Shown here piece after piece: positions 20,850 to 56,286 of a DNA stretch of 64,000 bases. Made by a program: the position numbers and the translations under genes. Every line of letters starts with the position of its first letter. Positions within the stretch are counted from its first letter, which is position 1. Source of the stretch: Escherichia phage vB_EcoM_P8; the sequence record PV390659.2. The stretch is one strand, 5' to 3'. The notes beneath the pieces were generated by a model. It worked only from the letters and a program-made list of their open reading frames with translations, did no database searches and was not told where the DNA came from.

Positions 20850-20932
20850 GTTCATTATGGTGGTGTTTTGTTTGGTTAATTAGTATTCCATTAATTTGTT
20901 TAACATTTACTTTTGTGATGAGGTTATTATGA
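20846..20932 (+). CDS. tiny hydrophobic peptide
   Basis: 28 codons, ATGA-coupled, one TM-like segment. Confidence 0.3.
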   Translation: MSSLWWCFVWLISIPLICLTFTFVMRLL

Positions 20933-21027
20933 AAATTTTGAATTCTGTACTTATTGCTTGTGCGTGGTGGGTTGCACAAGTTTCGGCAGTAGTGATTGGT
21001 ATTCACATTTATTACGAATATTTTTAA
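20929..21027 (+). CDS. tiny hydrophobic peptide
   Basis: 32 codons, ATGA-coupled. Confidence 0.3.
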   Translation: MKILNSVLIACAWWVAQVSAVVIGIHIYYEYF

Positions 21028-21034
21028 AAAAGTT

Positions 21035-21064
21035 GTTTACAAGACTGTTCCTCTGTGGTATTAT
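21035..21064 (+). promoter_or_regulatory. T4-type early promoter within stem-loop
   Basis: GTTTAC, 18-nt spacer, TATTAT; flanked by CTGTTCCTC/GAGGAACAG 9-bp inverted repeat. Confidence 0.55.
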
Positions 21065-21092
21065 TACCCTATCAACTACGGAGGAACAGAAA

Positions 21093-21206
21093 ATGAAAAA
21101 GATTGTTAAAGCTATATGGAATGTAGTTATAATACTAGTAGTTTTGAGTATATTCCCAATCGTTTTAATGATTGATGTATTAAACGCTTACTTTGGATTT
21201 ATGTGA
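21093..21206 (+). CDS. small membrane peptide
   Basis: 37 aa; GGAGGAACAG SD after promoter; longer track ORF uses upstream non-ATG start. Confidence 0.4.
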   Translation: MKKIVKAIWNVVIILVVLSIFPIVLMIDVLNAYFGFM

Positions 21207-21213
21207 GGAAAAT

Positions 21214-44108: not shown

Positions 44109-44131
44109 TTTTAATTTAATTGAGAGGATAT

Positions 44132-44395
44132 ATGATTTTACGATTTAAGGATACTTCTGGTGTCGTTCTTTTTACACTTCCTAACCCAAGTGAGTTAGAA
44201 GTTCCAGGACCAAATCAGCCTATTATCATTTATGGCAAAAAATATTATACTCATAAAATGACCCGTGAGTATTTTGATAATAAAATTTCCACAGTTAAAA
44301 CTTCTTCTGACTGTTATTATGATATTACTGTTTTAACGGAAAAACAATATGACGAATTATTACCGCGCGGGCCGTCTATGCCAGGTAGTGAATAA
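44132..44395 (+). CDS. hypothetical protein
   Basis: 87 aa from ATG with GAGAGGA SD; overlaps next ORF in a different frame. Confidence 0.45.
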
Positions 44396-55232: not shown

Positions 55233-55240
55233 TATAAATA
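55233..55240 (+). promoter_or_regulatory. candidate late promoter upstream of rIII
   Basis: TATAAATA about 140 nt upstream of rIII. Confidence 0.35.
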
Positions 55241-55379: not shown

Positions 55380-55628
55380 ATGATTAAACAATTACAACAC
55401 GCTCTTGAACTGCAACGAAACGCATGGAATAATGGTCACGAAAACTATGGCGCATCTATTGATGTTGAAGCCGAAGCCCTTGAAATCCTGCGTTATTTCA
55501 AACATCTGAATCCTGCTCAAACTGCATTAGCTGCTGAGCTCCAGGAAAAAGATGAACTTAAATATGCTAAGCCTCTGGCTTCTGCTGCACGAAAAGCAGT
55601 TCGTCACTTTGTGGTAACACTGAAGTAA
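55380..55628 (+). CDS. rIII: rIII lysis-inhibition accessory protein
   Basis: 82 aa; size and position. Confidence 0.8.
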   Translation: MIKQLQHALELQRNAWNNGHENYGASIDVEAEALEILRYFKHLNPAQTALAAELQEKDELKYAKPLASAARKAVRHFVVTLK

Positions 55629-56026
55629 TTTATTGGAGATTCACTGCCCTAGTGTGAGCTAAAATCGAGGAGCCGTCGAACTGTCTGATTAATGATTTGC
55701 GAATAATTATAGTTTTAAGACCCCGACAGTTTTACGGTGTACCTCTTGAATGTTATTCTTATAGCGGCAAGTGCATGCTACCCCGAGGTGATGGCCAATC
55801 GGGAGTACGCCTCAAGGCCTATATATCCATCAGTATATATCTTATCCTCGAGAAATCGAACCCGGAACCTTTAAGCTAACGGTGTGCAACAGATAAGAGC
55901 TATAAGGTATGATGACGGGTTTATGGTTATCCTGGTCGTTAAATATTCAAAAACCTATGTTCCCCTTGAGGGCTTGCGCAGGCAATGCCAATAAGTCCTG
56001 CATTTTCATTTAAAAGAGAATTTATA
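55629..56026. other. 398-bp non-coding, relatively GC-rich region with multiple inverted repeats
   Basis: No ORF with RBS on either strand; e.g. TCTTATC(55840-46)/GATAAGA(55893-99), CCGTCGAACTGTC/GACAGTTTTACGG near 55672-55737. Confidence 0.5.
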
Positions 56027-56203
56027 ATGGCAAAACAAGCTAAAGCAAAGAAAGCAGTTGAAAAGAAAGTTGGTGATTCTAAACGCGCTGGTTACAAGCG
56101 TGGGTCGAACTCTCGTATCAATCAAACTGTTGAGAAGATCATGCGCCGAGCACGTGCGGTTCTTCGAGATGATGCTTCTCGTTTTGGTAAGCAGAAAGCA
56201 TAA
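56027..56203 (+). CDS. hypothetical small basic protein (30.9 position)
   Basis: 58 aa MAKQAKAKKAVEKKVGDSKRAGYKRGSN...; terminator follows. Confidence 0.5.
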   Translation: MAKQAKAKKAVEKKVGDSKRAGYKRGSNSRINQTVEKIMRRARAVLRDDASRFGKQKA

Positions 56204-56208
56204 GTTGA

Positions 56209-56232
56209 GGACTCCTTCGGGAGTCCTTTTTT
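56209..56232 (+). terminator. rho-independent terminator, same hairpin sequence as the soc terminator
   Basis: GGACTCC-TTCG-GGAGTCC followed by TTTTTT. Confidence 0.75.
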
Positions 56233-56256
56233 ATTTTCCAAAGATTACACAAAGTT

Positions 56257-56286
56257 GTTTACAGTATAGTTCCTTTGTGATAGTAT
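56257..56286 (+). promoter_or_regulatory. T4-type early promoter with stem-loop
   Basis: GTTTAC, 18-nt spacer, TAGTAT; TCCTTTGT/ACAAAGGA inverted repeat. Confidence 0.5.

Follow-up and report, generated by a model that had tools for sequence, protein, structure and literature searches.

What fills the 398 bp that lie between rIII and gene 30.9 of Escherichia phage vB_EcoM_P8? We analysed a 64,000-nucleotide stretch of this phage (PV390659.2; hereafter the window, about one third of this phage's genome), a segment of a Tequatrovirus genome with 100% identity over the query to Escherichia phage vB_EcoM_BMB16, in which the spacer runs from 55629 to 56026, between the end of rIII at 55628 and the ATG of 30.9 at 56027. 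An earlier reading of the letters alone, made without database searches (the sequence-only reading), had singled out this gap as long, GC-rich and free of any open reading frame (ORF) preceded by a ribosome-binding site, and had offered a small structured RNA, a decayed gene or mobile-element remnant, or a replication or recombination site as explanations. Its description was accurate: the gene ends give exactly this gap, in a window where the median gap is 59.5 bp and six internal gaps, the spacer included, exceed 150 bp (on a crude ORF map); GC content is 0.416 against 0.356 for the window; and the ORF map of the spacer holds no credible ORF, only TTG- or GTG-started frames of 34-60 aa. Of its explanations the small structured RNA is the one that fared best. 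The central 149 nt, which we call module B, are almost certainly a genuine structured non-coding RNA, apparently of a family about 145 nt long that is new to the catalogues and belongs to T4-like phages of Enterobacterales, and an adjacent pseudoknot is reasonably well supported as a second such RNA. The sequence-only reading was right to call the spacer structured, but had treated as one unit what is, on our comparison, a chain of at least six separable RNA modules, in the order F-A-B-C-D-E, each of which would fold independently on the rIII-30.9 transcripts. After module E come the ribosome-binding site and the ATG of 30.9.

Module B (55758-55906, + strand) is predicted to comprise seven helices arranged about two junctions. 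The outer one would be a four-way junction of P1 (55758-55765 / 55899-55906), an arm in which P2 (GGC/GCC, 55766-55768 / 55817-55819) leads into P3 (55777-55810), the hairpin P4 (55820-55825 / 55834-55839), and a P5 domain. This domain in turn is best drawn as a three-way junction of P5 (55840-55846 / 55892-55898), P6 (55848-55859, with a GAAA loop) and P7 (55860-55864 / 55880-55885, with the conserved loop GAACCUUUAAGCUAA). Six of the seven helices covary (P1 and P3 to P7) and P2 is invariant. P5 is the inverted repeat TCTTATC/GATAAGA, one of three that the sequence-only reading had put forward as long-range; all three are present in the DNA, and for this one the role as a long-range helix is borne out. 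It is not for CCTCAAGG/CCTTGAGG (55810-55817 / 55964-55971), which would link B to module D: the repeat is unconserved in any relative, its right arm lies within the local hairpin CCCC-UUGA-GGG of module D, and it appears to be a chance match.

The fold was derived from copies of B gathered from GenBank phages, IMG/VR and metagenomes, 21 distinct ones of which were aligned. RNAalifold placed 38 pairs in this alignment, 26 of them with compensatory double changes; our pair counts use 43, the other five extending the P3 arm. Paired states make up 96.8% of the 899 pair cells, and for 28 of the 43 pairs both partners have changed, with 106 cells involved. The score for covariation, 0.404, compares with 0.154 for shuffled alignments, none of 500 of which attains it, and when the partner was slid by one to three columns only 29-41% of cells remained paired and the score fell to 0.035-0.070. 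Compensatory changes thus stand above both controls, as is generically expected of a conserved structured RNA, and the comparative alignment with covariation that the sequence-only reading had proposed as a check returns a conserved fold. Helix boundaries in the P3 arm differ slightly among lineages and the alignment there is imperfect; one extra counted pair in the P3 tip (columns 42-47) falls within the L3 loop described below. A covariance model of B (R1) scores the window copy at 184.9 bits and finds one copy per locus, with no further copy elsewhere in the window or in the T4 spacer. In phage EcS1 (L022) the P7 loop is 7 bases longer, a 5-nt segment that reads UUUAA elsewhere being replaced by 12 nt (AGCCUAUGGCCA), so that an insertion is evidently tolerated in this variable segment; the insert is similar to the CCUCAUGGCC segment at a junction of this RNA.

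Outside the nested fold, mutual information linked a single column of the P3 loop with a single column of the P4 loop (CG 19, UA 10). These columns belong to L3, UGAUGG at 55789-55794, and L4, CCAUCA at 55827-55832 (both + strand), which we read as the 5' and 3' partners of a 6-bp kissing-loop interaction between the tips of P3 and P4. In all 10 of the distinct loop combinations the two loops form exactly six Watson-Crick pairs, and they do so in five versions: UGAUGG/CCAUCA, CGAUGG/CCAUCG, CUAUGG/CCAUAG, CAAUGA/UCAUUG and UGCAUU/AAUGCA. Loops crossed between lineages manage a mean of 3.5 bp. The same complementarity could also support pairing between molecules and the assembly of multimers. 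In the search for extra tertiary pairs in B the kissing loop alone stood out, the remaining conserved segments being uninformative for mutual information because they are invariant.

The folded molecule is most simply the + strand, the sense of the flanking genes, because G-U outnumbers A-C by 49 to 1 among the stem cells of B and because the P6 loops read as GNRA tetraloops (GAAA, GUAA) on that strand. Stops interrupt all six frames of B in each of the 32 distinct copies, whose lengths range over 140-152 nt with differences that are not multiples of three. 'Hypothetical protein' features have nevertheless been placed over B in many Klebsiella phage records, and are not supported by its frames. 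Conservation is heaviest where B is single-stranded: of 57 unpaired columns 30 never vary, and of 86 paired ones 22, the invariant stretches being GGCAAG.GCAUG, GGCCUA, CC.GGA.CC and GCUAAC.GUG.GCAAC. RNAs that make specific contacts with a ligand or a protein, or within their own tertiary structure, show this pattern. When the window is compared with five other genera, B has 80-95.5% identity and rIII 66-76%.

Of 50,697 phage records 407 contain module B, always as a single copy in the genome; the host genera named include Escherichia, Shigella, Klebsiella, Enterobacter, Yersinia, Salmonella, Citrobacter, Serratia, Erwinia and Raoultella, and a divergent version is present in about 20 more records of Slopekvirus type. 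Its distribution is patchy: among records of Escherichia T4-like phages with a match to the spacer, only some one in four carry B (130 versus about 560), and neither T4 nor T6 has it. Orientation is always sense within a transcription unit, often with B starting 3-20 nt past a stop codon, and in most genera the position is that of the window, between rIII and 30.9. Slopekvirus and the phage PKM.Lu.22.1 are the exceptions. In Slopekvirus, B follows the uvsY operon, with a DUF2685 protein and a short unassigned ORF as upstream neighbours, and faces a convergent helicase gene; no same-strand gene comes after it. In PKM.Lu.22.1, a 76-kb member of the Grimontviridae, B starts 5 nt past the stop of an unrelated gene, is followed by module F and a UUCG-loop terminator, and is flanked by a sigma factor and phrog_6599; there is no homologue of rIII, 30.9 or 30.8 in that genome. 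The genes flanking these displaced copies have no family in common.

The sole nucleotide similarity of PKM.Lu.22.1 to the window is B itself, and a comparison of the proteins encoded in the 64-kb window with that phage returned zero homologues, and hence no co-transferred partner from this part of the genome. B thus travels, and presumably works, on its own. In scans that depend on exact conserved motifs or on similarity at the level of blastn, we found no copy in 5,426 E. coli genomes, and among 185,579 bacterial species genomes the strict pattern matched none and a loose half-pattern matched seven, all of which R1 rejected. Its distribution shows that B has spread horizontally among phages. 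The earlier suggestion of a mobile-element remnant was therefore half right: the core of the spacer has moved horizontally, but as an intact RNA under selection and not as a remnant.

No catalogued family accounts for B. Searched against Rfam (release 15), 1.7 kb around the spacer yielded nothing inside 55629-56026 at E <= 10, and the 406-base spacer query two chance-level matches (E = 4.9 and 7.4), both outside B; there was no match at gathering score anywhere in the window, nor any at E <= 1 in the loci of JD18, PKM.Lu, Cronus, K41P2 and T4. ARAGORN detected no tRNA or tmRNA anywhere in the window, so that the Rfam and tRNA checks suggested by the sequence-only reading yielded no known identity; the kissing contact of B, which joins its first and second hairpins, is also unlike that between the D- and T-like arms of tRNA. 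A likeness of the 3' domain to SAM-I (CUUAUC...ACCCGG.AACC...GGUG.GC...GAUAAG) was considered and rejected, because P5 is not conserved in sequence, the pairing differs and there is no match in the SAM clan. In full-text searches of the literature we found no account of any RNA from the rIII-30.9 spacer. In general character B recalls ROOL, GOLLD and the T4 RNAs rnaC and rnaD, all of them phage-borne, structured, non-coding and of unknown function, located inside transcription units and dispensable to some members of their group; it differs from them in lacking any similarity of sequence or model and in not standing beside tRNA genes, and it is far smaller than ROOL or GOLLD. R1 found no match in T4 69500-74500, which holds rnaC, rnaD and the tRNAs; the sequences are unrelated and the location is different.

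What, then, might B do, given the fold, the strand, the non-coding nature, the conservation above that of flanking genes, the independence and the horizontal spread that the comparisons indicate? Our confidence is evenly divided over the proposal that B is an accessory non-coding RNA, autonomous of its neighbours, whose role is to recognise some host factor or ligand that is itself conserved. It would be made within longer early and late transcripts, with no evident promoter or terminator of its own, and would fold as a self-contained domain on the carrier transcript, acting as an accessory RNA gene either in trans or wherever it is embedded. The invariant nucleotides of its junctions and loops would bind a partner conserved across enterobacterial hosts, perhaps a host protein or nuclease, for which B could serve as decoy or sponge, or else a small ligand. 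Under this proposal B would not be a regulator of gene 30.9. It is suggested by the fact that B is dispensable (being absent from T4), was portable to PKM.Lu.22.1 and is most constrained at its single-stranded positions. That B is better conserved than its neighbours and has passed alone to an unrelated phage family implies, moreover, a specific partner and a selectable function borne by the RNA.

Several points weigh against this proposal. The evidence on both the fold and the role of B is comparative throughout, and not thermodynamic: folding energies are no better than those of shuffled sequences (z = -1.35, -1.42 and +0.54), with no part significant. The copies are fairly closely related, with an effective sequence number of 1.57 in R1, so that a tally of compensatory cells includes several inherited changes many times over and exaggerates how many arose independently; this relatedness matters less for the variety of pair types and for the five kissing-loop versions. 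The scans of sequence collections required exact conserved motifs or similarity at the level of blastn, and could have missed distant relatives, bacterial ones included. Most T4-like genera, finally, keep B between rIII and 30.9, just as they would a cis-acting element of that operon.

Such a cis-acting mRNA element is an alternative that we consider unlikely, though not negligible. Here B, together with modules A and C to F, would be an intercistronic or 3'-untranslated structure governing the fate of the transcript that carries it: by blocking scanning by RNase E or the progress of 3' exonucleases it might let rIII and 30.9 decay at separate rates, or it might modulate downstream termination or translation. 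The constant position in most genera, the invariable sense orientation and frequent placement just past a stop codon, the lack of a promoter or terminator of its own, and the setting among hairpins and a pseudoknot, several of which T4 keeps without B, are all as this explanation would have them. Yet a plain stabiliser needs neither some 30 invariant unpaired nucleotides nor a four-way junction and a kissing loop, ordinary GC hairpins serve elsewhere in the window (for example at 56207-56228), and the flanking genes are wholly different in Slopekvirus and PKM.Lu.22.1, the former with no same-strand gene after B to be acted upon. A self-cleaving ribozyme of a new class, cutting the polycistronic transcript at a fixed site to give defined ends, strikes us as quite improbable. 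Small self-cleaving ribozymes are common in phage genomes and have spread horizontally, and the patchy distribution of B and its transfer to an unrelated phage fit such a history; hammerhead, twister, pistol and HDV-like theta ribozymes resemble B in size class, in a closing helix (P1 in B) and in tertiary loop contacts, and a junction rich in invariant unpaired nucleotides is likewise typical of small self-cleaving RNAs. B nonetheless lacks their conserved cores, those of hammerhead, twister, pistol and hatchet not being recognisable by eye, and not one Rfam ribozyme model matched the spacer even at E <= 10.

That B might be a riboswitch, a ligand-sensing aptamer regulating 30.9 through hairpins D and E, we regard as very doubtful. 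The architecture invites the comparison, since the purine (L2-L3) and lysine (L2-L3, 6 bp) riboswitches also combine a closing helix with a junction of invariant unpaired nucleotides and hold two neighbouring hairpins parallel through a kissing interaction; B lies upstream of 30.9 in most genera, and the hairpin of module E, with its U-rich tail, precedes that gene. What is missing is the constant leader of one regulated gene and an overlapping expression platform. B sits after a stop codon, in varying contexts, and is followed by module C, D, F or H depending on the genus, C lying between B and 30.9 in some genera and upstream of B in others; C, D and E precede 30.9 in T4 and T6 without B; and B has no 30.9 nearby in Slopekvirus and PKM.Lu.22.1, a terminator standing between B and the following gene in PKM.Lu.22.1. 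The kissing sequence of B, unlike those of the two riboswitches, is free to vary, its P5-P7 three-way-junction domain is extra, and no Rfam riboswitch model matches. The chances of a function at the level of DNA, whether as folded single-stranded DNA or as a site of protein binding or recombination (such as an origin, a target for homing or the junction of a cassette), seem slim indeed, and the replication or recombination site of the sequence-only reading found no direct support. The spacer does stand out as a hotspot where modules come, go and change order, and because DNA hairpins tolerate G-T wobbles the strand asymmetry alone would fit + strand single-stranded DNA as well. But the GNRA tetraloops, the 6-bp kissing loop and the four-way junction, taken with the G-U excess, form a signature of selection on RNA of the + strand; there are no iterons and no terminal inverted repeats beyond P1, which itself covaries as a helix, and B always follows the direction of transcription. 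A decayed or unannotated protein-coding gene is scarcely credible and already contradicted. Although TTG and GTG ORFs of 45-60 aa overlap B in the window, and 'hypothetical protein' features cover B in many Klebsiella phage records, relatives carry no ORF at this place, none of the 32 distinct copies keeps a frame open through B, a ribosome-binding site is lacking, indels do not come in codon-sized steps, and substitutions are compensatory across helices without three-base periodicity.

To return to the accessory RNA that we favour, it is tempting to carry it further. B may, though we hold this only tentatively, represent a new class of accessory gene made of RNA and able to move horizontally, a compact aptamer or decoy or a new ribozyme, carried by lytic phages to disarm or exploit some conserved factor of enterobacteria; candidates for that factor would be a nuclease, a signalling nucleotide, or a defence protein that is guided by RNA or binds it. 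If so, B would be a protein-free device for counter-defence or host takeover in the best-studied group of phages. The T4-like phages are the reference system of phage molecular biology, and B has probably escaped notice there because T4 itself lacks it. Phages that carry B (vB_EcoM_BMB16, JS98, SP18) and phages that lack it (T4, T6) are near-isogenic, and its slot tolerates insertion and deletion in nature, which makes the function directly testable. More immediately, the finding corrects hypothetical-protein annotations in GenBank, and shows the rIII-30.9 spacer of T4 to hold a conserved pseudoknot of its own.

The modular nature of the spacer as a whole emerges from its alignment with T4, Klebsiella phage JD18 and Kosakonia phage 305. 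The T4 spacer is 244 bp long and is without a block of about 150 bp that is nearly identical in JD18 and Kosakonia 305, the flanks of the block being unalignable with those of both. The modules run F-A-C-D-E in T4, and in T6 likewise, with the B slot filled by a different 44-nt module; this module followed by C-D-E in Shigella phage ESh15; C-F-B-D-E in JD18; B-C-D-E in Kosakonia 305; and B-F-terminator in PKM.Lu.22.1. At the slot equivalent to 55757-55907 the module of T6 (L054) and ESh15 (L056), about 44 nt, reads CUAUCAUGCGUCAGAAAAGUGUUAUCUGUGUAAGUCUUGGUG, and T4 has nothing. Because B, the 44-nt module or nothing stands there depending on the phage, the B slot can be regarded as a polymorphic cassette site, and the spacer clearly looks like a place where small modules get swapped in and out. 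A parallel is offered by the promoter-early stem-loop (PeSL) motifs reported to mediate modular shuffling in T4-type genomes (PMC2839356, PMC4122927), which like the spacer modules are short non-coding units of hyperplastic regions whose order and presence vary among close relatives. A PeSL, however, pairs a terminator hairpin with an early promoter, whereas B has no promoter and a complex covarying fold; there is no such pair in 55629-56026, the nearest being at 56207-56286.

The best supported of the other modules is C (55907-55959, + strand), for which a covarying stem and loop pairing point to an H-type pseudoknot. The stem is GAC/GUC (55914-55916 / 55935-55937), with further pairs above it, and the loop pairing GGUU/AACC (55925-55928 / 55952-55955), 4 bp in both the window and T4; the segment that pairs with the loop is preceded by a conserved A-rich linker, CGUUAAAUAUUCAAAAA, of the form CGUUAAAUAU.CAAAAC. 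Two variable stem pairs covary (UA 11, AU 7, GC 1; and CG 11, GC 5, UA 3), and the loop pairing persists through changes of sequence as GGUU/AACC, AGGUU/AACCU, GUAGU/ACUAC, UUGUGAG/CUCACAA and UUAGUAGUU/AACUACUAA. Module C is present in the T4 spacer (about 740-800 of our T4 locus, L001) and in most T4-like genera. It precedes B in Jiaodavirus, Muldoonvirus and PEi20-type phages and follows it in Tequatrovirus, Mosigvirus, Karamvirus, Kanagawavirus and Roskildevirus, and it is because of this change of position with genus that we treat it as a separate unit. No Rfam model matches it in any lineage scanned. The leader of T4 gene 32 mRNA offers a likeness, in that both combine an H-type pseudoknot with an A/U-rich stretch, are conserved in T4-like phages and belong to the 5' region of a T4 gene of the early or middle class; C differs in sequence and gene, and is sometimes far from 30.9, upstream of B. 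The hairpin-loop pseudoknot of modules C and D, with its GUUAAAUA linker, resembled the organisation of a pistol ribozyme (RF02679), in which the loop of hairpin P1 is pseudoknotted and a conserved A-rich linker, P2/P3 and a G-U cleavage site complete the core; the resemblance was rejected when cmscan gave no pistol match at E <= 10 and the P2 pairing proved unconserved in the Karamvirus copies.

Modules A, D, E and F are known from few sequence variants, compared by eye, and the evidence for them is weaker than for B and C. Module F (55637-55660, + strand; minimum free energy (MFE) fold) is a small hairpin, GAGAUUCAC-UGCCCUAGU-GUGUGAGCU, with relatives in Jiaodavirus, Mosigvirus and PEi20-type phages and, downstream of B, in PKM.Lu.22.1; by eye, its stem varies as CAC/GUG, CGC/GCG and UGC/GCA. 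Module A (55667-55745, + strand), an inverted repeat and MFE fold, would be a long imperfect hairpin with CCGUCGAACUGUC...GACAGUUUUACGG, and is restricted to Tequatrovirus and Mosigvirus, T4 included. Its MFE fold is not significant (z = -1.42), and it shows one compensatory change, from CCGU/ACGG to CCAU/AUGG in L021; comparative support is weak because the sequences are too alike. The inverted repeat in it is the remaining one of the three named by the sequence-only reading, CCGTCGAACTGTC/GACAGTTTTACGG (55673-55685 / 55725-55737), which makes a plausible long hairpin but has little comparative support.

Module D (55962-55978, + strand) consists of the hairpin CCCC-UUGA-GGG followed by CUUGCG, and recurs beside B in other genera, on either side of it; its motif GUACCCnnnnGGGGCUUG is found in JD18, PS2, K41P2, PS49, EcS1 and Kosakonia 305. 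A hairpin of this type, GUACCC-nnnn-GGGGCUUG, stands on one side of B or the other in loci L002, L005, L007, L009, L022 and others, and another, AUGUUGCC-GNAA-GGCAAGUUAAA, precedes B in Kosakonia 305 and PG7 and follows it in L028. Small hairpins thus seem to be shuffled like the larger modules. The GCTTG of module D was considered as a middle promoter of MotA type and set aside, no acceptable -10 box being visible by eye. Module E (55978-56011, + strand) was read by eye as a hairpin GCAGG...CCUGC followed by AUUUUCAUUU, a U-rich tail; in other genera the stem is swapped for GGGAGC/GCUCCC, GAGAG/CUCUC and others. The consensus scan did not call it as a terminator; it could be a weak one, or else a structure in the leader of 30.9.

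On the + strand the genes around the spacer run cd, 31, rIII, spacer, 30.9, 30.8 and onward. rIII (55380-55628), an accessory protein of lysis inhibition, was assigned by its match to phrog_1457 (E = 4.7e-44) and bears that label in many records. A T4-type late-promoter consensus, TATAAATA, matches exactly at 55233-55240 (+ strand) upstream of rIII, and is a likely origin of late transcripts that pass through the spacer; the consensus occurs at eight sites in the window, not above chance, and promoter function is here inferred from position and from the known expression of T4 rIII. A consensus scan for promoters and terminators placed neither kind of site inside 55629-56026. The AT-rich 5' strand of P1 resembles a -10 box in some phages, and was rejected as a promoter of B's own, since P1 covaries as a helix and this strand must therefore sit inside the RNA. 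Downstream of 30.9 a UUCG-loop hairpin (56207-56228, rated strong) and T run form an intrinsic terminator (56207-56237, + strand) that ends the rIII-30.9 unit. With a late-promoter consensus before rIII, no terminator-like site between the two genes and a strong terminator after 30.9, B would be expected on rIII-30.9 mRNAs and also on longer transcripts produced by early read-through. An early-type promoter (TTTACA, 17 bp, TAGTAT; 56258-56286, + strand) follows, so that 56207-56286 has the makings of a PeSL-like cassette.

Elsewhere in the window the crude ORF map leaves three other stretches of 240-466 bp free of ATG-started ORFs, at 318-783, 20850-21213 and 44109-44348. All three are AT-rich (0.29-0.34 GC), unlike the rIII-30.9 spacer, and only short TTG or GTG ORFs overlap the first two. 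The spacer is the most GC-rich of the long gaps, the remainder of which have 0.29-0.35 GC, and its GC content rises to 0.464 in the central 153 bases (55757-55909), which are module B plus 1-3 flanking bases.

Gene 30.9 (56027-56203, + strand) encodes a very basic protein of 58 aa (pI 11.4) whose translation, MAKQAK..., is identical to that of T4 gp30.9 and which contains a conserved motif, SKRAGYKRGSN. A Pfam search of gp30.9 gave no match, and its PHROG assignment, phrog_1427, is of unknown function. The gene is always found directly 3' of structured modules C to E, and an RNA-binding role for gp30.9 is conceivable; module B appears independent of it, because PKM.Lu.22.1 carries B without a 30.9 homologue. 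Several phage records name the 30.9 product '1,4-alpha-glucan (glycogen) branching enzyme, GH-13-type', a label that must be wrong since the protein, at 58 aa, is far too small.

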